Source: Candidatus Margulisiibacteriota bacterium (GTDB taxonomy: Bacteria; Margulisbacteria; WOR-1; JAKLHX01). From it: 64,000 nt of DNA. The stretch lies in assembly GCA_041650595.1 (NCBI GenBank), contig JBAZKW010000003.1, forward strand, positions 44,843 to 108,842, in the 5' to 3' direction. Positions 3,174 to 43,143 of this stretch are shown here, one piece after another (positions within the stretch are counted from its first letter, which is position 1; each line of letters starts with the position of its first letter). Position numbers and translations under genes: made by a program. The notes under the pieces were generated by a model. It was given only the letters and a program-made list of their open reading frames with translations, was not told the DNA's origin and did no database searches.

Positions 3174-4310
3174 ATGGGAGAACAGTCCGGAGATAAAAGC
3201 GAAGAACCTACTCCTCACCGGCTTAAAGAAGCGCGCGAAAAGGGACAGGTCGTAAAAAGCAAGGAAGTAACTACTGCTTTTTTGCTCATACTTTCTTATG
3301 TTGTACTCAGGTTTATCGGGGGATTCGCTTGGGAGGAGCTTTCTAACATGGTAAGGGCAATATACAGCCTTATCCCAAATATCCAGGACTTCGGCTATGG
3401 CTTTGTCGCGGCCGCCCTTATGATCGCTTTAAGGGCTTTTGCTCTGATACTGACCCCGCTCCTTGGAGCAGTCTTTCTCGCCGCAGTACTGGTGGAAGCA
3501 CTTCAAACGCAGGGGGTTTCTTCAATAGATCCTCTTTCCCCCAAGCTGGAGCGGATAAATCCGATCGAAGGCTTTAAGCGTATGTTCAGCATGCAGGGTA
3601 TATTTGAGTTGATAAAATCCCTCCTGAAGATAATAATAGTTTTTTGGATAACCTGGACCGCCATAAGCAGAGAGCTGCCGTTTGTCATCGGCCTTATCAA
3701 CGCGCATCCTTGGGAAGCGCTTGCTGTCGGGGGCTCGATCGCTTTTAACGTGGCACTCAGAGTATCGATCTTCTACCTGTTCATAGCCGTACTGGATTAT
3801 TTGTACAAAAGGTTTGAATTCATGAAGAACCTGCGGATGACAAAACAGGAGATAAAAGAAGAATATAAAAGGCTTGAAGGAGATCCGCACGTAAAGCAAA
3901 AGATGAGGGACCTCCAGAGAGCCATGTCAAATAACAGGATGATGTCATCCGTTCCGCAGGCGGATGTGGTCGTAACCAATCCTACCCACTTAGCGGTCGC
4001 GATCTCCTATCAGGCCCCCAAGATGAAAGCCCCAAAGCTTTTGGCTAAAGGGCGTTTTGAGATCGCGGAACAGATAAAAGCGATCGCCGAAAAAAATAAT
4101 ATCCCCATAGTTGAGAATGAGGAGCTCGCAAGAGCGATATACCGGTCCGCGAAAATAGGAGAAGAAATGCCCAACGAACTCTATCAGGCAGTTGCGGAAG
4201 TGCTCGCTTTCGTGTATAAATTAAAAAAAGACCGCGTCCGCCGGCGCAAGGAATGGCTTGGTCCTTTAAAAGGGATCAGAGACGATCTCCAGCCGGCAAT
4301 TAGGAGTTAA
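3174..4310 (+). CDS. flhB: Flagellar export switch protein FlhB
   Basis: N-terminal EEPTPHRLKEAREKGQV and the NPTH autocleavage motif (VVTNPTHLAVA). Confidence 0.95.
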   Translation: MGEQSGDKSEEPTPHRLKEAREKGQVVKSKEVTTAFLLILSYVVLRFIGGFAWEELSNMVRAIYSLIPNIQDFGYGFVAAALMIALRAFALILTPLLGAVFLAAVLVEALQTQGVSSIDPLSPKLERINPIEGFKRMFSMQGIFELIKSLLKIIIVFWITWTAISRELPFVIGLINAHPWEALAVGGSIAFNVALRVSIFYLFIAVLDYLYKRFEFMKNLRMTKQEIKEEYKRLEGDPHVKQKMRDLQRAMSNNRMMSSVPQADVVVTNPTHLAVAISYQAPKMKAPKLLAKGRFEIAEQIKAIAEKNNIPIVENEELARAIYRSAKIGEEMPNELYQAVAEVLAFVYKLKKDRVRRRKEWLGPLKGIRDDLQPAIRS

Positions 4311-4315
4311 TAAAA

Positions 4316-6397
4316 GTGGCCGAATCCGGCGGTCTCAAATTATTTAAGAATCTGTTTTCCGTTAATGACCTGGTTTTTGCGGGCCTTCTGGTCATTATAA
4401 TTGCCTTGATCATAGTCCCCCTGCCGCCATTCATCATGGATATTCTCATCGCCGGGAATATCGCGCTCTCTCTGATCGTCCTGCTCGTTTCCATGTTCTT
4501 AAAAGAGCCCCTTGACTTTGCGGCGTTCCCTTCAATGCTTTTGTTCGTCACCCTTTACAGGGTATCCATCAATATAGCTGCTTCGAGACTGATCCTGCTC
4601 AACGCTGACGCAGGGGAAGTAATCGCTTCTTTCGGAAACTTTGTTGTCGCCGGCAATTATATCGTCGGGGGAATTGTATACATTATAATCACGTTGGTGC
4701 AGTTCATTGTCATAACAAAGGGTTCCGAGCGCGTCGCCGAAGTCGCCGCAAGGTTCACATTGGACGCCATGCCCGGCAAGCAGATGTCTATCGACGCGGA
4801 CCTGAATGCGGGATTGATAGACGCCAACGAAGCAAAGGCCAGAAGAAGGAAGATAGAAAGAGAATCTACTTTCTTTGGCGCTATGGACGGTTCCAACAAA
4901 TTCGTAAGAGGCGATTCGATCGCTTCCATCATAATCACTATTGTTAACCTGATCGGCGGCATACTGGTCGGTTGGCTGCAAAGAGGAATGGATGTAATGC
5001 AGGCGGTACAGACTTTTGCGCTGCTTACCATAGGCTGCGGTCTTGTGATACAGATCCCGGCACTGCTCGTATCTATCGCCACCGGTATGGTCATAACAAA
5101 AGCCGCCACGGAAGAAAGTATAGGAACCGATATCTCCAAGGAGCTGTTTGCGCAGCCCAGAGCTTTTGCTTTTGTGGCTCTGATACTCGCGGCTTTTGCT
5201 CTGGTTCCCGGGCTCCCCACCCTGCCGTTCATGACAATAGCCATGGGTGCCGGCTTGATGACAATTTTTGTGCTTAGGGCGCAGCTGAAAAAAGAAGAGG
5301 TCGCGATGGTATCCGAAGAGTCCACCCAAAAAGATGCACTAAAAAAACCTGAAAGTATAATATCCACGCTTGGGCTCGACCCTCTCAGTTTAAAGACCGG
5401 CAGGAATTTGATCCCCATGATAGATCCGGCCAAAAAGGGCCCGTTGCTCGAAAAGATAACCCTTATCCGGTATCACATCGGTCAGGAGCTCGGCTTTGTA
5501 ATACCGGGCGTCAGGGTCATGGACGACCTGAGCCTTCCCCCGAACCAATATGTACTGGAAATAAGAGGAACAAAGGTAGCTACCGGAGAAGTGCTGGCAG
5601 ATCACGTAAAGGTGGATATGACCTCAGAAGAGTTGAAAGAAAAAAATATTTCCGGGATAGACGGCAAAAATCCTATTGATGGAGATATTATCACCTGGGT
5701 GCCTCAAACCGAAAAGCCTAAACTGGAGGAACTGGGAATAGCCTCAACAGACGCGGTCGATGTTATAGGCGACCACTTCAGGGAGACCGTAAAACGCTAC
5801 GCCGACGAAATAATAACCAGGCAAAATGTGCAATCGCTGGTGGAGCTTGTAAAAAACGCGAACGCGGCGATAGTAAGGGAGCTGATCCCTGACATGCTCT
5901 CTCTAGGTCAGGTACACAAGGTCCTTCAGCTGCTGGTAAGAGAGCGTGTTTCGATCAGGGACCTTTCTACCATTATGGAGCGACTGGCGGATTATGCGCA
6001 TCTAAGCCGTGATATTAATATCTTGGCGGAATATGTCAGACAGTCCCTTGCCAGGCAGATATGTGAAAGTTACACCAACAAAGATGACGTGATCACGGTC
6101 ATAACTATAGACCCTAACCTGGAAGAGACCATGATCGGAGCAGTACACCAGTCCGAATACGGTTCTTTTCTCGCACTGGACCCCAGCATCGGAGAAAGGA
6201 TCCTGGGCCAGATCGCGACACAGATCTCCGCTTTTAAAAAGATGAAGCTCGCTTCGGTCATTCTTTGCTCTCCCCGACTCAGGCCCCATTTAAAGAAATT
6301 TATCGAGCGAAGCTTCCCTGATACGGCCGTGCTGTCGTATAACGAAATAGTGCCCCAGGTAAAAGTCCAGTCCATAGGCATGGTATCATTGGACTAA
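4316..6397 (+). CDS. flhA: Flagellar export gate protein FlhA
   Basis: 693 aa with FlhA hallmarks (ERVAEVAARFTLDAMPGKQMSIDADL). GTG start after AGGAG. Confidence 0.95.
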   Translation: MAESGGLKLFKNLFSVNDLVFAGLLVIIIALIIVPLPPFIMDILIAGNIALSLIVLLVSMFLKEPLDFAAFPSMLLFVTLYRVSINIAASRLILLNADAGEVIASFGNFVVAGNYIVGGIVYIIITLVQFIVITKGSERVAEVAARFTLDAMPGKQMSIDADLNAGLIDANEAKARRRKIERESTFFGAMDGSNKFVRGDSIASIIITIVNLIGGILVGWLQRGMDVMQAVQTFALLTIGCGLVIQIPALLVSIATGMVITKAATEESIGTDISKELFAQPRAFAFVALILAAFALVPGLPTLPFMTIAMGAGLMTIFVLRAQLKKEEVAMVSEESTQKDALKKPESIISTLGLDPLSLKTGRNLIPMIDPAKKGPLLEKITLIRYHIGQELGFVIPGVRVMDDLSLPPNQYVLEIRGTKVATGEVLADHVKVDMTSEELKEKNISGIDGKNPIDGDIITWVPQTEKPKLEELGIASTDAVDVIGDHFRETVKRYADEIITRQNVQSLVELVKNANAAIVRELIPDMLSLGQVHKVLQLLVRERVSIRDLSTIMERLADYAHLSRDINILAEYVRQSLARQICESYTNKDDVITVITIDPNLEETMIGAVHQSEYGSFLALDPSIGERILGQIATQISAFKKMKLASVILCSPRLRPHLKKFIERSFPDTAVLSYNEIVPQVKVQSIGMVSLD

Positions 6398-7743: not shown

Positions 7744-7795
7744 ATGGATTGCGGGTTCAAACCTGCCTGCCGGCAGGCAGGTCCCATCGCCCGCT
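7744..7795 (+). pseudogene. Decayed tRNA 3' fragment (tRNA-Gly-like T arm and acceptor) with a 20-nt palindrome in the T-loop
   Basis: The sequence ...GCGGGTTCAAA[CCTGCCTGCCGGCAGGCAGG]TCCCATCGCCCGCT resembles the tRNA-Gly 3' end (GGGTTCGACTCCCATATCCCGCT). Confidence 0.5.
7762..7781. repeat. Palindrome family A (CCTGCCTGCCGGCAGGCAGG), copy 1
   Basis: Perfect 20-nt palindrome, identical to the copies at 28744 and 35549. Confidence 0.95.
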
Positions 7796-8035: not shown

Positions 8036-8089
8036 GTAAGGGAGTGGTCTGCAACCCCGACGAAGTCTGGGCGAATCTGGTCATCGCCT
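8036..8089 (+). pseudogene. Decayed tRNA-Cys-like fragment
   Basis: It shares GAGTGGTC and TGCAA with tRNA-Cys and has a degraded T arm and acceptor (GGGCGAATCTGGTCATCGCCT). It does not fold as a cloverleaf. Confidence 0.4.
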
Positions 8090-8092
8090 TAT

Positions 8093-8135
8093 TTGACAGG
8101 CAAGGGGTCACTGGTTCCAACCCAGTAATGTGTAC
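8093..8135 (+). pseudogene. Degenerate copy of the 3' half of tRNA-Val
   Basis: TTGACAGGCAAGGGGTCACTGGTTCcAACCCAGTAAtGtGtA matches 7833-7874 with 4 mismatches, running from the anticodon loop to the 3' end. Confidence 0.75.
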
Positions 8136-8216
8136 TATTTTTTGTTGTAGTTAAGAAGGAAATATAAAACGGAATTTTCTTCTTTTTCATTTATTGGGAA
8201 TTCTTCTAAGAATACT

Positions 8217-11828: not shown

Positions 11829-11899
11829 GCGCTTAGCTAAAGTTGGCTATAGTAATTGCTTGACAGGCAATGGATCACTGGGGAATCTCCAAACGTGCA
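11829..11899 (+). pseudogene. Full-length but degenerate tRNA-Val (GAC) copy
   Basis: GCGCTTAGCTAAAGTTGGCTATAGTAATTGCTTGACAGGCAATGGATCACTGGGGAATCTCCAAACGTGCA aligns along the whole of tRNA-Val (7801-7874). The acceptor and T stems no longer pair. Confidence 0.7.
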
Positions 11900-22622: not shown

Positions 22623-22649
22623 CCGTACGGGCCGGTCGCGACCGGCCCC
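22623..22649. repeat. Palindrome family E (CCGTACGGGCSGGTCGCGACCSGCCCC), copy 1
   Basis: GGGCCGGTCGCGACCGGCCC palindrome between prs and hom. Confidence 0.85.
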
Positions 22650-26554: not shown

Positions 26555-27238
26555 TTAAATATACTTTATCGTGATCTTCAGCAAAAGATCCCCTTTTTTT
26601 CCGCAGCACGGGCACGGCTCGCCCAGACCTGCAAGCCGGAGTTTTGTATTGTTTGTTACTCCTTTTGGGATATTTACTGTTATGTTCTTCCTGTTTGAAA
26701 GGGACAGGTCTACTTTGCCGCCGGTTGTAGCCAGGCGGGAGGGAATTTCAATTTGCGCGTTGATGTCTGTGCGGACCTGTTCACGGGCCGGAGCTCCTGC
26801 AGAATAAACACGGGAGTACCCTCTTCTCTCCCCGCTTGAAAATGAATCTCCGAAAATATCGTCAAATATATCAAAATCCATTTGCCCTGAGCGAGTCGAA
26901 GGGCCTCTTTTTGTCTTTGACGATGTTGCATATCCAAGATGCGATAAAAGATCTTCGATATCGAATCCCTGCGTATTGGCGTAAGACTGGCCTGCCCGTC
27001 CGTCATAGGCATAACCGCCTTTTCGCATCATGTCGTATTCCTGTTTTCTTTTTTGGTCGCCAAGAACATAGTAAGCTTCGGACATTTCTTTAAATTTTTG
27101 CTCGGCGCCTTTTCTGTCATTGGGATTCATGTCTGGATGGTATTTTTTCGCAAGCTTGCGGTATGCGGATTTGACCGCATCCGTCGACACATTTTCCGCA
27201 ACGCCAAGAATTTTATAATAGTCTTTAGTTGGTTCCAT
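26555..27238 (-). CDS. J-domain protein (DnaJ/CbpA-like)
   Basis: DYYKILGV...[10 protein letters not shown]-domain, a G/F-like linker and a short C-terminal beta domain with CPCCGKKG. Confidence 0.8.
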
Positions 27239-27277
27239 GCCCTCACCCCCACCCCCTCTCCCAAAGGGAGAGGGGCG
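27239..27277. repeat. Palindrome family C, intergenic copy
   Basis: GCCCTCACCCCCACCCCCTCTCCCAAAGGGAGAGGGGCG. Confidence 0.85.
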
Positions 27278-27281
27278 AACA

Positions 27282-27695
27282 TTATTTCACCTTTGAACCC
27301 GGTTCGACCGGTCTTTCCGGACTTATAAGGATCGGCATTCCGTCAGCCCCCGTTGCCGCCAGCAACATCCCGTTGCTTTCGACACCCCTCAACACTGCGG
27401 GCTCCAAATTATTGACAACTACGATGTATTTTCCGATCAAATCTTCCTTTGAATACGATTTTTTTATGCCTGCAACGATCTGTTTGTATTTTGGGGATGG
27501 GGAAATGGGATCTTGTACAGGCGCCGCATGCGGCGCCTCTTCCGTACGGGCGGGTCGCGACCCGCCCCCTACAATTCCCATTTCGCCGACATCGATTTTC
27601 AATACCAATAATTTATCGGCATTGGGATGATCCTGCGCATCTATTATTTTTGCGATCTTAAATTCAAATTTCATAAAATCTTCTATTGACGGCAT
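27282..27695 (-). CDS. tRNA-binding domain protein (CsaA/YgjH-like) with a composite in-frame repeat insertion
   Basis: [29 protein letters not shown] ... [11 protein letters not shown]...[19 protein letters not shown]. About 30 extra residues ([29 protein letters not shown]) are encoded by repeats. Confidence 0.75.
27514..27568. repeat. Adjacent palindromes of families D and E inside the tRNA-binding protein gene
   Basis: TGTACAGGCGCCGCATGCGGCGCCTCT followed by CCGTACGGGCGGGTCGCGACCCGCCCC. Confidence 0.9.
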
Positions 27696-27724: not shown

Positions 27725-27752
27725 TGTACAGGCGTCGCATGCGGCGCCTCTA
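27725..27752. repeat. Palindrome family D (TGTACAGGCGYCGCATGCGGCGCCTCTAC), intergenic copy
   Basis: Near-identical to the copies at 27514 and 27909, in the same orientation. Confidence 0.9.
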
Positions 27753-27760
27753 CGGAATCA

Positions 27761-28309
27761 TTACAACCACCCTATCATCGCGAACGACGCGATCGTCTTC
27801 GCATCTAATATTTTACCACTTCTGAACATTTTTCTGATCTGGGAACGCGATACGATCAGGGGCTCGATGATCTCATCGGGATCGCATTTTATGGGCGATA
27901 AATTGCCATGTACAGGCGTCGCATGCGGCGCCTCTACCAAAACTAATCCCTTTGCCTGAAAAATATGCAAAACCTCCGTCGAATAACCCGGACATGGGAT
28001 CAATTTGCCGATCTTTTTGATCGCCGTCGCTCTATAACCTGTTTCCTCTATCAATTCGCGTTTCGCACAGGCAAGCGGCTTTTCCCCCTTGTCTATGGAA
28101 CCTGCCGGCAATTCGTAGATATATTGATTCACTACTACCCTGAATTGCCTGATTATTACGACTTTATCCCTGGAGATAAGGGGAATGATGACTACCGCTC
28201 CCCTGTGTTTTACAAAATCATAAAGTTTTGTGATGCCGTTAGGCAGAGTGATCTTTTCTCTTACAAAATCAAAGATGCGGCCTTTGTGAACGAATGCTTT
28301 TGAGGACAT
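27761..28309 (-). CDS. NUDIX hydrolase (ADP-ribose pyrophosphatase-like) with an in-frame repeat insertion
   Basis: Nudix box GEKPLACAKRELIEETGY. The segment VEAPHATPVHG is encoded by palindrome family D. Confidence 0.8.
   Translation of the reverse strand: MSSKAFVHKGRIFDFVREKITLPNGITKLYDFVKHRGAVVIIPLISRDKVVIIRQFRVVVNQYIYELPAGSIDKGEKPLACAKRELIEETGYRATAIKKIGKLIPCPGYSTEVLHIFQAKGLVLVEAPHATPVHGNLSPIKCDPDEIIEPLIVSRSQIRKMFRSGKILDAKTIASFAMIGWL
27909..27936. repeat. Palindrome family D, copy inside the NUDIX gene
   Basis: TGTACAGGCGTCGCATGCGGCGCCTCTAC. Confidence 0.9.
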
Positions 28310-28395: not shown

Positions 28396-28418
28396 ATAAA
28401 TTTGCTATCGCAAATTTA

Positions 28419-28727
<309 letters not shown>

Positions 28728-28733
28728 CTCTGT

Positions 28734-28785
28734 CCCGACGAGCCCTGCCTGCCGGCAGGCAGGTACCAGGCTGCTCTACCCCGCG
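28734..28785 (-). pseudogene. Displaced 5' half of tRNA-fMet (nt 1-31) with palindrome A in the D-loop
   Basis: The minus strand reads CGCGGGGTAGAGCAGCCTGGTA[CCTGCCTGCCGGCAGGCAGG]GCTCGTCGGG. Outside the 20-nt insert (28744-28763) it is identical to the intact copy. Confidence 0.85.
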
Positions 28786-28897
28786 ATTATATTACTATTT
28801 TTGCATAGTTTGACGCTTAATTCAACTTTGGAAAAACATAAAAATCTGTAAAAAGTGAAATTTCTCAAAAATACACCCGATATAACTTTACAAAAGC

Positions 28898-33783: not shown

Positions 33784-35141
33784 ACAGCGAGAAGCCCTGC
33801 ATACTGATAGTTGACGACGAAGAAAGTATAAGAGAATCGTTTTCCCTTATCTTGCAGGATGAATACGACTTGATCTCCGTTTCCACAGGCGAAGCCGCCC
33901 TAAAAAAAGCCGTTGACCACAAAATAGACCTCGTTTTTCTCGATATCAGAATGCCGGGAATGGACGGAATGGAAACCCTGACAAGGCTAAAAAAAATAGA
34001 CCCCTCGCTTGAAGTGGTTATGGTTACCGCGGTGAATGATGTCCAAAAAGCCGGCGAGTCCGTAAAGATCGGCGCCAACAATTATATAGTCAAACCTTTC
34101 GATGTTCCCCGCATACTTGCGATGGCCAAGACCTTAACAAGAAAAAAAAATCTTATGCGCACAGCCGCCGGGATGAGAAAAAGCGCCGACGGCCTGCCTG
34201 CATTCCCGGAACTTTCCGGACACAGCAAAACATTGCAAGCTCTTATCGAAAAAGCAGTCGAGCTTGCGAAAACTGACTTGCCGCTTTTGATAATCGGAGA
34301 ACCCGGGACAGAAAAAGAAACAGCCGCTTTTATTATGCATTCTTCTGGCAAAAGAAAAGACGCAGGTTTTGGAGTGCTCAATCTGCCAAAGAACGGCAAT
34401 GAAAAAGAACTTTACAAAGACCTGTTCGGTTCAGGAAAAGGTTCTTTTGTATATGATCTGGATAAAAAAGCCGGACTTGTAGAGCGATGCGCCGGAGGGA
34501 CCGTGCTTATAAACAACATTGAAAATGCGTCCCAACAGCTGCTCGCAGACATCTCGGAAGCCATCGAAAAAAAAGGGGCAAAAAGATACGGAAGCTCACA
34601 GGACATAGCCCTAAATGTCAGGTTCATTTTTTCGTCTTCCGAGGAACTTGCCTCTTCGGAAAATCCTGAACACAACATTCCGGGCAATCTTATTAACGAT
34701 TCTCTATTGATCCCCCCCCTGCGGTCCCGCCGCGAGGATATCCAGGATATCTGCTTGGAACTTCTTGCCCATCTAAACAAAGAACTGGGAAAAAGGGTCA
34801 AAGAGATCACCCCCGATACACAGGAAATACTTAATTCCTATCCGTGGCCGGGAAATTTTGAGGAGCTTAAGAATATCCTGAAAAAAACTGTTGCCGCAAG
34901 CGACAATGAGATATTAAGCACAAAAGATCTTCCTTTTTGTATCCTTATGTGGTCGCCGGCTTTTTCCTATATCGAAGAAGCTTCCGGCTTTTCTTTGGAC
35001 AGCCTGACTTCGGTCTTTGAAAAAGAATTTTTATTAAACATCTTGAGAAAGTCTAACTTTGAGATACAAACGGCCACGAAGGTCTTAAACATCAACAAGA
35101 ATATCCTTTTATCCAAGATAGAAGCACTGCAAATAAAGTAG
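33780..35141 (+). CDS. Response regulator with a degenerate sigma-54-activator (AAA+) domain and C-terminal HTH
   Basis: The REC domain is intact (DLVFLDIRMPGMDG). Walker A reads GEPGTEKE, GAFTGA is replaced by GSFVYD, and Walker B reads GGTVLINNIEN. Confidence 0.8.
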   Translation: MNSEKPCILIVDDEESIRESFSLILQDEYDLISVSTGEAALKKAVDHKIDLVFLDIRMPGMDGMETLTRLKKIDPSLEVVMVTAVNDVQKAGESVKIGANNYIVKPFDVPRILAMAKTLTRKKNLMRTAAGMRKSADGLPAFPELSGHSKTLQALIEKAVELAKTDLPLLIIGEPGTEKETAAFIMHSSGKRKDAGFGVLNLPKNGNEKELYKDLFGSGKGSFVYDLDKKAGLVERCAGGTVLINNIENASQQLLADISEAIEKKGAKRYGSSQDIALNVRFIFSSSEELASSENPEHNIPGNLINDSLLIPPLRSRREDIQDICLELLAHLNKELGKRVKEITPDTQEILNSYPWPGNFEELKNILKKTVAASDNEILSTKDLPFCILMWSPAFSYIEEASGFSLDSLTSVFEKEFLLNILRKSNFEIQTATKVLNINKNILLSKIEALQIK

Positions 35142-35145
35142 CACT

Positions 35146-35229
35146 TGCCGTTGGTCGGAGTCGAACCGACATGGGTTTGCACCCAAGGGATTTTAAGTCC
35201 CTCGTGTATACCAATTCCACCACAACGGC
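35146..35229 (-). tRNA. tRNA-Leu (UAA)
   Basis: The reverse complement reads GCCGTTGTGGTGGAATTGGTATACACGAGGGACTTAAAATCCCTTGGGTGCAAACCCATGTCGGTTCGACTCCGACCAACGGCA. It has a long variable arm and anticodon loop CTTAAAA. Confidence 0.9.
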
Positions 35230-35238
35230 GTTATGAAG

Positions 35239-35526
35239 CTATAAATTAACATCAATAGGAAATTCATGTTTGTTGACAAATTCCACTCTCTTCAACAATC
35301 TTTTAAGACCAGCCCTTCCACATCCGGATTTCATATATTTTTCCCGTTCGATGGCAGTAGATTCATTTTTCAAACATTCATAATATAGCATCTTAAAGGG
35401 CCTTCTGCGTCTGGTTGATTGTACTTTGCCGACATTGTGTTGATTGAATCGTCTCTTTAGATTGTTAGTATGACCAATATAAATATCCCCGTCTTTTTCA
35501 CTCTGAAGTACATATATGTAACACAT
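35239..35526 (-). CDS. GIY-YIG nuclease family protein (YhbQ/COG2827-like)
   Basis: MCYIYVLQSEKDGDIYIGHTNNLKRRFNQHNVG...AIEREKYMK. The stop lies 9 nt before tRNA-Leu position +1. Confidence 0.8.
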   Translation of the reverse strand: MCYIYVLQSEKDGDIYIGHTNNLKRRFNQHNVGKVQSTRRRRPFKMLYYECLKNESTAIEREKYMKSGCGRAGLKRLLKRVEFVNKHEFPIDVNL

Positions 35527-35531
35527 TAATT

Positions 35532-35585
35532 AGTCCCTCGTGTATACCCCTGCCTGCCGGCAGGCAGGAATTCCACCACAACGGC
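35532..35585 (-). pseudogene. Displaced 5' half of tRNA-Leu(UAA) (nt 1-33) with palindrome A in the D-loop
   Basis: The minus strand reads GCCGTTGTGGTGGAATT[CCTGCCTGCCGGCAGGCAGG]GGTATACACGAGGGACT. Outside the 20-nt insert (35549-35568) it is identical to the intact copy. Confidence 0.85.
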
Positions 35586-40665: not shown

Positions 40666-43143
40666 ATGGTAGAGTATAATTTTCGTGAAATTGAGAAGAA
40701 ATGGCAGGATTTTTGGGAAGCCAACAAAACCAATGAAGCCCTAAACCAAAGTGACAAGCCAAAGTTTTATGACCTCGTGATGTTCCCCTACCCGTCAGGC
40801 GCCATACATATGGGACATGTCAGGAATTATGCCATAGGAGATATAGTAGCCAGATACAAAAAAATGCAGGGCTTCAATGTACTGCATCCCATCGGCTGGG
40901 ACGCTTTTGGCATGCCGGCCGAGAATGCCGCGATAAAGAACAACTCCCATCCCAGAGACTGGACCGAAAAATGCATAGAGAGAATGAAAGTACAGCTAAA
41001 GAAGCTGGGTCTTTCCTACGATTGGTCTAGGGAAGTCACCACCTGCAAGGAGGATTATTACAAATGGACACAATGGATATTCCTTCAGTTTTACAAGGCG
41101 GGACTGGCTTACAGAAAAAAAGCCACCATAAATTGGTGCAATACCTGTGAAACAGTGCTTGCCAACGAACAGGCAAAAGAAGGAAAATGCTGGAGATGCG
41201 ACAGCAAAGTCGAAGAAAAAGCGCTCGAACAATGGTTTTTTAAGATAACCGCATACGCCGACAAACTGCTCAACGATATAGACAAACTGGAAGGGTGGCC
41301 GGATTCTGTAAAAATAATGCAGCGCAACTGGATCGGCAAAAGTGAGGGCACCAAAATAATCTTTAAGATCGAGAATTCTGATAAGACGCTCGAAGTTTTT
41401 ACCACAAGACCGGATACTTTGTTCGGCGTGACATATATGACGCTGGCACCGGAACATCCGCTGACGCTTGAGGTTTCGCATACGAAACCTCAACACGAGG
41501 CGGTAAAAAACTATATAGAAAAAGTCCGTGAAGAGAAAAAGCTCACCAGAGAGTTGTCGGATGAAAAGACGGGTGAGTTTACCGGGGCTTTTGCAATAAA
41601 TCCCGCAAACAACGAAAAAATACCGATATGGACGTCCGATTACGTCCTTATGGAATACGGCACAGGCGCTGTTATGGCCGTTCCGGCACACGACCAGAGA
41701 GATTTTGATTTCGCGAAGAAATTCGGATTGCCGGTCAAAACAGTGATCGTTCCGGTTGACCGCGTAGATGTTGATTGTAATCGACATCTACCTTTGGAAA
41801 TCAACGGTGCCTACGTCGATCCCGGCGTCATGGTAAACTCCGCCCAATTCGACGGCACAAAAAGCCCCGATGCCATAAACGCGATCACCGACTGGCTCAT
41901 CGAAAAGGGCGTCGGTAAAAGGGAAGTGAATTATAAGATCAGGGATTGGCTGATATCACGCCAGCGCTACTGGGGCGCGCCGATCCCGATAATTTATTGC
42001 GAAAAATGCGGTGCCGTTCCTGTTCCGGAAAAAGATCTCCCGGTAAAGCTCCCTTATGATGTAAAATTCACGGGAGAAGGGGGATCCCCTCTTTCAAGAT
42101 CCGATAAATTCGTAAATACAACATGCCCAAAGTGCGGAGATAAAGCAAAAAGAGAAACAGATACGCTGGATACGTTCAACTGCTCGTCGTGGTATTTTCT
42201 GCGCTACATAAATCCTAAGCAAATGGACAAGCCGTTCACATATGATGACTTAAAATATTGGATGCCTGTTGACCAATATATCGGAGGGATAGAACATGCT
42301 ATCCTTCATCTTCTTTATTCCAGGTTTTTCACCAAAGCCCTTTACGATCTTAAGCTGGTCCCGGCGGACGAACCTTTCAAAAATCTTTTGACCCAAGGAA
42401 TGGTCGTCAAAGACGGGGCAAAGATGAGCAAATCCAAGGGCAACGTGGTCGATCCGGATTACATTACCGAAAGATACGGGGCCGACACTGCCAGGCTTTT
42501 TATATTATTCGCGTCCCCTCCCGAGAGAGAGCTTGAATGGAGCGACGCAGGAGTAGAAGGAAGCTACCGGTTTTTGACTAGGATATGGAGATTGATTACG
42601 GAACAAGCCCTCACCCCCATCCCCTCTCCCAGCACGCTCTCGGCGGGCGTTGGGAGAGGGGTGCCCGAAGGGCGGGGTGAGGGTGAGATCATCCAAAAAC
42701 TCCACAAAACCATCAAAGGCGTGACGGATGACATCGAAAGATTTTCTTTCAATACGGCAATATCAAAGATCATGGAGCTTGTCAATGCATTGCAGGGACA
42801 ATCTTTCAGCAAGGCAACAGCAGAAAAGCTTATTATCATGATCTATCCGTTTGCTCCTCATATAGCGGAAGAGTTGTGGCATATGTTGGGAAATAAAAAT
42901 ACAATAACATCCGAGACCTGGCCTAAACATGACGAAAACCTCGCAAAAGAAAGCCGGATCGAGATACCGATCCAGGTGAATGGTAAATTGAGAGACAAAA
43001 TAATGGCTCGGGCCGGGATCTCGGAAGAAAACGCTAAAGAACTCGCGTTAAATACCGATAAAATTAAACAGGCGATCGCAGAAAAACAGATAGTTAAAAT
43101 AATTTTCGCAGGCGGAAAACTCGTGAATATTGTCGTAAAATAG
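40666..43143 (+). CDS. leuS: Leucine--tRNA ligase, carrying two in-frame palindrome insertions
   Basis: HMGH (HIGH-type) and KMSKS motifs and a CP1 editing domain. Start set at MVEYNFREIEKKWQ. Confidence 0.95.
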   Translation: MVEYNFREIEKKWQDFWEANKTNEALNQSDKPKFYDLVMFPYPSGAIHMGHVRNYAIGDIVARYKKMQGFNVLHPIGWDAFGMPAENAAIKNNSHPRDWTEKCIERMKVQLKKLGLSYDWSREVTTCKEDYYKWTQWIFLQFYKAGLAYRKKATINWCNTCETVLANEQAKEGKCWRCDSKVEEKALEQWFFKITAYADKLLNDIDKLEGWPDSVKIMQRNWIGKSEGTKIIFKIENSDKTLEVFTTRPDTLFGVTYMTLAPEHPLTLEVSHTKPQHEAVKNYIEKVREEKKLTRELSDEKTGEFTGAFAINPANNEKIPIWTSDYVLMEYGTGAVMAVPAHDQRDFDFAKKFGLPVKTVIVPVDRVDVDCNRHLPLEINGAYVDPGVMVNSAQFDGTKSPDAINAITDWLIEKGVGKREVNYKIRDWLISRQRYWGAPIPIIYCEKCGAVPVPEKDLPVKLPYDVKFTGEGGSPLSRSDKFVNTTCPKCGDKAKRETDTLDTFNCSSWYFLRYINPKQMDKPFTYDDLKYWMPVDQYIGGIEHAILHLLYSRFFTKALYDLKLVPADEPFKNLLTQGMVVKDGAKMSKSKGNVVDPDYITERYGADTARLFILFASPPERELEWSDAGVEGSYRFLTRIWRLITEQALTPIPSPSTLSAGVGRGVPEGRGEGEIIQKLHKTIKGVTDDIERFSFNTAISKIMELVNALQGQSFSKATAEKLIIMIYPFAPHIAEELWHMLGNKNTITSETWPKHDENLAKESRIEIPIQVNGKLRDKIMARAGISEENAKELALNTDKIKQAIAEKQIVKIIFAGGKLVNIVVK
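41764..41791. repeat. Palindrome family F (GTAGATGYYGATTGYAATCGRCATCTAC), copy inside leuS
   Basis: GTAGATGTTGATTGTAATCGACATCTAC encodes VDVDCNRHL. Confidence 0.9.
42608..42684. repeat. Palindrome family C, long copy inside leuS
   Basis: CCCTCACCCCCATCCCCTCTCCC ... GGGAGAGGGG ... GGGGTGAGGGTGAG encodes ALTPIPSPSTLSAGVGRGVPEGRGEGE. Confidence 0.85.

Follow-up and report, generated by a model that had tools for sequence, protein, structure and literature searches.

The DNA analyzed here, referred to as the window, is a stretch of 64,000 nucleotides (nt) from a Candidatus Margulisiibacteriota metagenome-assembled genome (MAG). The locus under study lies on its minus strand, where the gene for a minimal GIY-YIG nuclease sits between a broken and an intact copy of tRNA-Leu(UAA). 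Read in the sense of the tRNA, this Leu cassette consists of a displaced 5' part of the tRNA gene, interrupted in its D-loop by a perfect 20-bp palindrome (named P1 here), a short junction, the open reading frame (ORF) of the nuclease, a spacer and the complete tRNA gene. A sister cassette of the same design is present at tRNA-fMet. The features are listed in Table 1, in which numbers preceded by L denote loci outside the window.

Table 1. Features of the Leu cassette, followed by related elements in the window and in other loci
Feature	Position	Strand	Remarks
Leu cassette, whole	35146..35585	-	
Displaced 5' piece of tRNA-Leu(UAA), nt 1-17, GCCGTTGTGGTGGAATT	35569..35585	-	100% identity to intact gene
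P1, perfect 20-bp palindrome, CCTGCCTGCCGGCAGGCAGG	35549..35568	.	between tRNA nt 17 and 18 (D-loop), without target duplication
Displaced tRNA-Leu piece, raw nt 18-34, GGTATACACGAGGGACT	35532..35548	-	100% identity to intact gene
5-nt junction aatta, displaced fragment to ORF	35527..35531	-	
95-aa minimal GIY-YIG nuclease gene, SLX1/UPF0213 type, ATG to TAG	35239..35526	-	Pfam PF01541, 68.7 bits
9-nt spacer cttcataac, ORF stop codon to tRNA +1	35230..35238	-	
Intact tRNA-Leu(UAA)	35146..35229	-	ARAGORN; Rfam 60.6 bits; aligns with plain tRNA-Leu of relatives
Sister cassette at tRNA-fMet, designed as the Leu cassette	28418..28786	-	displaced nt 1-22, P1, nt 23-32, ORF, intact tRNA-Met(CAT)
P1 copy in fMet cassette	28744-28763		
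85-aa GIY-YIG ORF in fMet cassette, running into the tRNA	28727-28470	-	Pfam 62.3 bits
Gly-like tRNA 3' fragment with third P1 copy (7762-7781) in the T-loop	7745..7795	+	between tRNA-Gly(CCC) and tRNA-Val
Second hairpin family	L154:1320-1365 and 1750-1830, L198:1424-1470, L163		

The anatomy of the Leu cassette had been described in an earlier note made by reading the letters of the window, and its coordinates and sequence statements all hold, as does the complete identity of both partial pieces to the intact gene. The duplication was confirmed to start at +1 and to end after U33. The flanks diverge directly upstream of +1 (cttTT before the displaced copy versus ataaC before the intact one), and because ARAGORN sets the anticodon at raw position 35, the last base of the displaced fragment is the canonical U33. 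The displaced 5' fragment retains the native upstream flank, consisting of the DivIC stop codon plus 9 nt, and the native 3' flank, a convergent response-regulator gene with its end at 35141, lies beside the intact tRNA-Leu. The sequence GAGGGA of the old anticodon stem was found where the note had placed it, 7 nt upstream of the ATG, and is a plausible Shine-Dalgarno sequence of the GIY-YIG ORF. Relative to the empty site, the locus carries 356 extra bases, of which 20 belong to P1 and the other 336 comprise the junction, the ORF, the spacer and the repeat of the tRNA's 5' part. With a GC content of 34.7%, compared to 45.1% for the window, the ORF is compositionally foreign. The RNA fold of the 5' region shows the P1 hairpin, and its overall energy is unexceptional (z = -1.03).

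Comparison with related genomes established that the cassettes are insertions. At the Leu site three relatives were compared (L207, L209 and L211), in which the neighbouring response regulator is 81, 75 and 67% identical. The gene order response regulator, tRNA-Leu, DivIC and Wzy/TPR protein is common to 3/3 of them, and in all three the gap between the response regulator and DivIC measures only about 90 nt and contains a plain tRNA-Leu(UAA), without an ORF or P1. In the alignment, the DivIC stop codon and the native leader abut tRNA +1 in the relatives and the displaced fragment in the window. At the fMet site, another relative (L248) carries a plain tRNA-Met between NUDIX and GH57 genes, and the leader of this tRNA is homologous to the flank of the window's displaced fMet fragment. 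No P1-like sequence with up to 4 mismatches was present in the relatives' syntenic loci lacking cassettes, nor was any perfect palindrome of at least 16 bp detected in the two longest of the relatives' syntenic loci (21 and 16 kb). Since plain tRNA genes occupy the same sites in relatives, both cassettes are lineage-specific insertions, and the presence/absence polymorphism by which free-standing homing endonuclease genes are recognized was observed at both loci.

The ORF of the fMet cassette does not stop ahead of the tRNA but continues through 24 nt of tRNA-Met (28470-28493) to a TAG inside CTGGTAGCTC, and in one relative (L004) the ORF likewise reads into its tRNA, a tRNA-His. The Leu and fMet proteins share 37% identity (29/78), in agreement with the one third of residues estimated previously, and their alignment (E 2e-14), a check that had been named in advance, shows that the two loci are related. 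The identity of the 20-mer in both cassettes was also confirmed; the previous inventory of palindromes, correct for these two copies, had missed the third one in the Gly-like fragment. A shared insertion point was not borne out, as the insertion falls at 33/34 in Leu, at about 31/32 in fMet and anywhere from nt 28 to 62 across other cassettes.

The Leu protein matched the Pfam GIY-YIG model over residues 1-67 of 95 (68.7 bits, E 5.6e-19, cut-off 22.6), and together with the score of the fMet protein (62.3 bits) this places both in the GIY-YIG superfamily (PF01541). A look-up of the identical protein sequence found no recorded entry. Residues Y5, Y16, G18, R26 and H30 are invariant across nine family sequences. 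When a nine-member family profile was compared with the PDB, the matches were 1zg2 (BH0048, UPF0213) at 1.1e-12, 1ywl (EF2693) at 4.1e-9, SLX1 at 1.7e-6 to 1.4e-3 and I-TevI only at 5e-3. No NCBIfam model scored above its cut-off, the group I intron endonuclease model reaching 20.9 bits against a cut-off of 56. From these profile matches and the lack of an NCBIfam assignment, the protein is therefore a minimal SLX1-like form of the fold, without a DNA-binding module. The family (79-103 aa in length) belongs to the SLX1/UPF0213 branch, and the whole protein is one GIY-YIG domain, with no separate DNA-binding module as in I-TevI or SegB. A particular closeness to the classic homing endonucleases of this fold, as suggested earlier, was not supported, because the closest relatives are SLX1/UPF0213 proteins and not those of I-TevI type. 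The likeness to UPF0213/SLX1 proteins such as YhbQ, BH0048 and EF2693 comprises the best sequence matches among solved structures, a single domain and a length of about 80-100 aa. A full HMMER scan of 1.84 billion representatives (50%-identity clusters) returned 4,865 clusters at E<=1e-10 and 19,922 at E<=1e-3.

To a large extent, the relatives of these proteins reside beside tRNA genes. Among the close homologues traced, 4/5 adjoin a tRNA or tmRNA gene and 3/5 carry P1; they are found at tRNA-Arg(CCT) (L001 and L002), at tRNA-His (L004) and in a mirror-image arrangement at tRNA-Arg (L005), and the fourth adjoins tmRNA and is without P1 (L003). In an unbiased sample of 80 metagenomic relatives, 42-63% identical and found with a five-sequence alignment, 42/80 have a tRNA or tmRNA gene no more than 200 nt away; the proportion is 37/64 for those with at least 200 nt of flank on both sides. 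The homologues are thus non-randomly placed with respect to tRNAs, as the earlier note had anticipated. All of the tRNA- or tmRNA-adjacent relatives (42/42) have their ORF co-oriented with the RNA gene, the order being ORF then tRNA in 26 and tRNA then ORF in 16, and 21 anticodons as well as tmRNA are represented. Protein pairs that are 70-74% identical were found at different tRNAs (Phe/Thr, Ile/Gln, Leu/Thr).

The design of the window's cassettes recurs at Arg(CCT) (L001), His (L004, L206), Lys(TTT) (L043, L146, L156, L177), Gly(TCC) (L112), Leu(GAG) (L124) and Met (L083, L147), and on a viral contig (L244). The relatives commonly have a partial copy of the tRNA displaced to the far side of the ORF; its outer end is always tRNA +1 in the upstream type or the tRNA 3' end in the downstream type, and it is the inner end that varies. 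Mirror-image cassettes with a displaced 3' fragment were observed in L005 and L153/L154, and in the latter an intact tRNA-Leu(GAG) followed by the ORF is framed by a displaced 5' part on one side and a displaced 3' part on the other. By analogy with the mirror cassette L005, the Gly-like fragment at 7745-7795 of the window is probably a decayed cassette of the tRNA-then-ORF order from which the ORF has been lost.

Family members were also identified inside other genes. In L099, a locus of a candidate phyla radiation (CPR) genome with a P1 copy, a family member lies within a 23S rRNA helix (4600-5300), closed by an inverted repeat of the flanks and with no intron present. In L066, from a Thermodesulfobacteriota MAG, hsdS carries two insertions in its central conserved region (3800-4200), with P1 between the codons of GRLVP|QDPNDPP and the GIY-YIG ORF 21 nt downstream, and one frame is open through the whole gene. 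Another member lies 363 nt upstream of a 16S gene (L167). With at least 21 anticodons, tmRNA, 23S rRNA and hsdS among the family's locations, Leu(UAA) and fMet are not special targets. That part of the earlier proposal of recurrent homing targets thus falls away, while a homing-endonuclease-like lifestyle remains the best reading, in which the family resembles homing-endonuclease genes in its behaviour, with tRNA, tmRNA and rRNA genes as the targets.

The same observations could be viewed differently if the ORF were a housekeeping SLX1/UPF0213 repair nuclease, or a tRNA-related enzyme, co-transcribed with tRNAs, and the partial tRNA copies were incidental. Prokaryotic Slx1-like minimal domains have been interpreted as vertically inherited repair enzymes, and one fusion of such a domain to a TrmH-like methyltransferase hinted at RNA metabolism (PMC1564403); additionally, the ORF always points in the direction of the tRNA, at a short distance from it. 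We nevertheless consider this explanation very unlikely in view of the presence/absence polymorphism at two loci, the foreign GC content, the multiple diverged copies in one genome, the decayed copies (truncated in L080, frameshifted in L112), the insertions inside 23S rRNA and hsdS and the target duplications specific to each tRNA. In contrast to the vertical repair enzymes that the UPF0213/SLX1 family is taken to represent (PMC1564403), the clade in the window displays insertion polymorphism, target duplications and decay, which amount to selfish behaviour.

Altogether, we regard it as probable that the Leu locus is a 356-bp selfish insertion, namely a free-standing, homing-endonuclease-like GIY-YIG gene that uses tRNA sequence as its homology anchor. 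In the course of events that we propose, the nuclease would break the tRNA gene, here near the anticodon loop. One broken end would be repaired by copying a donor containing the ORF and a tRNA, with the conserved tRNA sequence acting as the homology arm, and the other end would be joined illegitimately just upstream of the ORF. The expected product would be the native upstream flank, a dead tRNA 1-33, the ORF, a complete tRNA and the native downstream flank; since the essential tRNA would be regenerated, no intron would be needed. Breakage followed by these two kinds of joining is the simplest account of four features, namely the native 5' flank beside the dead fragment, the native 3' flank beside the intact gene, outer ends that coincide with the gene boundary and inner ends that vary next to the ORF. 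The ORF would probably be transcribed from the native tRNA promoter with GAGGGA as its ribosome-binding site, and RNase P would free the tRNA. Campbell-type recombination of a small circle carrying tRNA plus ORF, followed by a deletion, could lead to the same product by an alternative route. P1 would be a separate mini-element that entered the dead fragment. In the most economical reading, a hairpin there would be harmless and would break up a direct repeat able to delete the ORF; the P1 interruption would accordingly block recombinational loss of the ORF, or else plug the cleavage site.

The exact +1 boundary had previously been taken as a hint of a mature-tRNA intermediate. A duplication derived from a mature tRNA or tRNA half via reverse transcription would produce such a boundary, and the 5' boundary is indeed mature +1 in the Leu cassette and in most others. 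We consider this origin highly improbable. The boundary, general as it is, belongs to a native 5' part still in place, and since the copy with the +1 end keeps its native upstream flank, it is the original gene that was left where it stood. In three loci (L146, L198 and L206) the repeat passes +1 by 4-38 nt and takes in, upstream, what is left of an ORF 3' end, a pattern that renewed invasion of an occupied locus would produce. Furthermore, in mirror cassettes the duplicated 3' part runs as far as the gene end with no evidence of CCA, and no reverse transcriptase is present; the insert holds one ORF, which leaves neither an integrase nor a reverse transcriptase at the locus.

Another possibility to be considered is that the locus is what remains of a group I intron and the homing endonuclease it carried, or of a tRNA island introduced by an integrase. 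In cyanobacteria, tRNA-Leu(UAA) and tRNA-fMet carry group I introns, the fMet one with a homing endonuclease, and the Leu intron is inserted at 34/35. The cassettes resemble these introns in the same two tRNA identities, in an insertion in or near the anticodon loop and in a mobile nuclease gene, and one family member does lie beside a group I intron (L136, 59.6 bits). The cassettes differ from them in being without a ribozyme, in their insertion points (33/34 and about 31/32), in restoring function by partial gene duplication rather than splicing, and in occurring at many other tRNAs. The connection to the cyanobacterial introns drawn in the earlier note does not stand, because the targets of the family are too varied, and the residual intron structure that the note suggested looking for was not detected, with no Intron_gpI signal in Rfam at the gathering threshold or at E<=1. 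Moreover, the tRNA is continuous. As in tRNA-targeting islands and prophages, the insertion lies within a tRNA gene that is regenerated by a duplicated flanking tRNA segment. The cassette departs from these in having no integrase, a size of 356 bp with a single 95-aa ORF, a variable inner boundary and a repeat formed by the 5' part of the tRNA (nt 1-34) rather than the 3' part, with either part duplicated elsewhere in the family. An intron or island remnant is therefore extremely improbable and, at this locus, effectively refuted; the absence of an integrase-borne element agrees with the earlier expectation.

Several points nevertheless weigh against a selfish, homing-endonuclease-like insertion. 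Among relatives with adequate flanks, 27/64 adjoin no detected tRNA. Protein clades partly track their target (tmRNA clade, 70-77% identity; Lys(TTT) clade, 71-72%), and no pair more than 80% identical was found at different tRNAs, so that recent transposition was not seen. No family member has a known cleavage activity or target site, and it is difficult to see how a protein of 85-95 aa with no DNA-binding domain would home in a sequence-specific manner; enzymes of the SLX1 type are structure-specific. Immunity of an occupied locus is not obvious either, since the tRNA regenerated there does not differ from the presumed target. The single promoter-like match upstream of the Leu cassette is no better than chance. 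Finally, the idea of P1 as a lock against recombination leaves unexplained both L066, which has no repeat, and the invariance of the P1 sequence, and that of P1 as a plug in a cleavage site likewise leaves its invariance across phyla unexplained.

P1 itself has a distribution far wider than that of the cassettes. Three copies occur in the window, where 0.00 are expected in shuffled sequence, and no variants with 1-3 mismatches were found there. A scan of genomes (exact match, one genome per species) revealed P1 in at least 120 genome stretches; among the matches listed are Patescibacteria (many classes), Bacteroidota (cultured isolates included), Omnitrophota, Planctomycetota, Gamma- and Deltaproteobacteria, Bdellovibrionales, Thermodesulfovibrio and Chloroflexi. 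A scan of viral contigs yielded 35 viral stretches. P1 is hence brought to light as a pan-phylum 20-bp palindrome, identical across at least 10 phyla and in viruses, and this invariance implies, indeed demands, a sequence-specific reader. In the literature searched, the P1 sequence had no match.

Within this distribution, P1 is a mini-element in its own right, with about 95% of the copies standing alone and about 5% of family members carrying one. A role as a fixed part of the cassette design, as assumed previously, is not supported by these proportions. The position of P1 varies with the host, being the D-loop in Leu, Met, His and Lys, the anticodon loop in Arg and Gly and the T-loop in the window's third copy; further hosts are an hsdS codon boundary (L066) and a viral cassette (L244). 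On two viral contigs, a tRNA-Met has P1 in its variable loop (L237, 2239-2330; L214, 8560-8660), which would give a class-II-like extra arm, and the T-arm of the L214 tRNA-Met is partly deleted. Next to family genes, 13-39 nt separate P1 from the start codon that follows it. The mirror cassette L005 has P1 on the other side of the ORF, 14 nt past the stop codon, and for this reason the candidacy of P1 as a fixed upstream regulatory element of the ORF was rejected. A tRNA-Lys array in L177 (1200-1930) holds three P1-interrupted pseudo-copies, all at GGTAGA|GCAGC, that flank an intact tRNA-Lys(CTT), the GIY-YIG ORF and an intact tRNA-Lys(TTT); P1 is therefore found on both sides of the unit of ORF plus tRNA, as in L156.

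The mode of P1 insertion was examined at these sites. The flanks show a mild A…T preference (41/179 sites). A target-site duplication was discounted, as 167/176 sites (95%) have a flanking repeat of 0-2 nt, as do controls. In five loci (L051, L086, L088, L107 and L231) P1 is embedded in 7-nt tandem repeats (e.g., AATTACG, TCTAAAA), which result in an apparent 7-nt flanking repeat. Insertion at hairpin tips was similarly rejected, with 36.6% of P1-removed junctions in a predicted hairpin loop versus 39.6% of random positions, and 9.8% versus 7.2%, a difference that is not significant, for stems of at least 6 bp. No transposase or RAYT (transposase associated with repetitive extragenic palindromes, REP) recurs in the 8-kb flanks of 120 P1 loci. 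P1 resembles REP/RAYT systems, Rickettsia palindromic elements and miniature inverted-repeat transposable elements (MITEs) as a short, GC-rich, palindromic multicopy repeat that sometimes lies inside genes. It differs from them in that it is 20 bp long and perfect, without a GTAG head, terminal inverted repeats around a core or an associated transposase. By the standards of REP/RAYT or MITEs, no GTAG was found in its flanks, no fixed target duplication and no cognate transposase.

Cassettes without P1 often bear other GC-rich hairpins in the part of the displaced fragment where P1 would lie, e.g., CCCGCCCGCAACGCCTGAGCAAGC…GCGGGCGGG in L154, L198 and L163. A second conserved hairpin family, CCCGCCCGCAACGCCTGAGCAAGC…GCTTGCGATGGCGGGCGGG, recurs in metagenomes that are unrelated, where displaced tRNA fragments carry it in their D-loops and anticodon loops. 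Most of the family's displaced tRNA fragments are broken up by a GC-rich hairpin of one sort or another. Overall, the density of GC hairpins in the displaced-fragment zone is 1.12 per kb versus 0.05 per kb in controls (22-fold).

A different relationship would exist if P1 and the mini GIY-YIG nuclease were one system, with P1 as the recognition or cleavage site or as a 20-bp passenger excised and inserted in trans by the nuclease; solo copies would then be non-autonomous members, and a copy beside an ORF would mark the cut site. This reading is possible but doubtful. In its favour, P1 does not vary (20/20) between cassettes that belong to different tRNAs and have protein identities of only 37-72%. 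Wherever P1 accompanies a family gene, its place is within the displaced target fragment at 5-21 nt from the ORF junction, and neither the hsdS insertion (L066) nor the viral cassette (L244) departs from this. Lys cassettes show P1 at a minimum of two different sites, so that it was inserted repeatedly. In a survey of ORFs of at least 70 aa clustered across the 120 loci with 8-kb flanks, GIY-YIG was the sole protein family that recurred close to P1 (6 loci, median distance 32 nt). The relatives that lack cassettes also lack P1 over 21 kb, and neither a transposase, a target duplication nor degenerate P1 copies were found. Against these observations, the family lies within 700 nt at only 6/125 genomic P1 sites among the matches listed, P1 is carried by only 4/80 sampled family members and its peptide translation is present in only 4/149 family representatives. 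Unrelated hairpins replace it in other cassettes, and on a viral contig where P1 is present in at least 6 copies, three stretches amounting to about 28 kb of its 29.5 kb (overlap between them unchecked) contain no gene of this family. Recognition of 20 bp by a domain of 85-95 aa would also be unprecedented.

It is unlikely, though conceivable on the same evidence, that P1 represents a novel type of mobile DNA that depends for its movement or maintenance on minimal SLX1-like GIY-YIG nucleases, which would act in trans and spread via conserved tRNA homology. In such a scheme P1, which has no coding capacity, terminal repeats or target duplication, may be the recognition or cut site of the nucleases or a passenger that fills the break, and the nuclease genes may spread between distant taxa, replacing the tRNA gene that they break.

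For the free-standing, homing-endonuclease-like insertion that we favour, the closest known system is that of the SegB-type free-standing GIY-YIG homing endonucleases in phage tRNA clusters. SegB, a protein of the homing-endonuclease/UvrC lineage, is about 220 aa long and binds DNA through a region at its C-terminus. The cuts that this GIY-YIG endonuclease of T4/T6 phages makes in tRNA genes fall at the TψC motif; across phage genomes it accompanies tRNAs of every isotype, and it drives a recombination-dependent segmental amplification of tRNA plus segB (PMC2330249, PMC13096335); it recognizes a 27-bp site (PMC2330249). The likeness extends to the GIY-YIG domain, the position of the gene among or beside tRNA genes without isotype preference and the duplicated segments of tRNA plus nuclease. 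SegB is phage-borne, whereas the protein in the window is a single SLX1/UPF0213 domain of 85-95 aa found in cellular genomes of many uncultivated phyla, and insertions of the type seen in the window regenerate the target by partial duplication, leaving behind a truncated tRNA copy colonized by a hairpin.

A survey of insertions in CPR rRNA genes has reported GIY-YIG ORFs in non-intron insertions (PMC11270868), and the family member inside the CPR 23S rRNA helix of L099, also without an intron, is of this kind. The main text of that survey mentions tRNA 0 times and describes neither a tRNA association nor a target duplication (PMC11270868). Our literature search returned no description of tRNA GIY-YIG cassettes or of P1, within a coverage that is incomplete and leaves an earlier description possible.

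If the proposed interpretation is true, the smallest GIY-YIG nucleases can be selfish, among them the SLX1/UPF0213-type proteins so far filed as conserved repair proteins of unknown function. Such elements would invade essential tRNA, tmRNA and rRNA genes across many uncultivated lineages and would solve the problem posed by an essential gene through regeneration by partial duplication, without an intron. The use of tRNA as a homology arm would additionally explain how they cross phylum boundaries. A protein family of several thousand clusters becomes open to a cheap and concrete biochemical test, and the cassettes explain a class of tRNA gene fragments that confuse annotation.

The window contains further tRNA scars, at 8040-8140 and 11841-11881. 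In one of the scars, a copy of the tRNA-Val leader is joined straight to Val nt 36-69, so that nt 1-35 are gone. A fragment resembling the Cys anticodon arm sits downstream of tRNA-Cys, and a Val pseudogene is cut off at the T-loop (88% over 41 nt). Other GC-rich 20-nt palindromes, with GTAC…CTAC flanks, are located at 22629-22648, 27517-27572, 27729-27750 and 27913-27934; these are REP-like, because the CTAC flank is GTAG on the other strand. Some of the palindromes flanked in this way are part of ORFs. A 152-aa protein and the NUDIX protein gain peptides such as EAPHA(A/T)PV from them, which recalls the in-frame insertion of Rickettsia palindromic elements. C/G-rich segments of the type CCCTCACCCC / GGGAGAGGGG…GGGGTGAGGG occur at 42628-42683 and at 27239-27258, the latter inside a plus-strand ORF (27229..27630).

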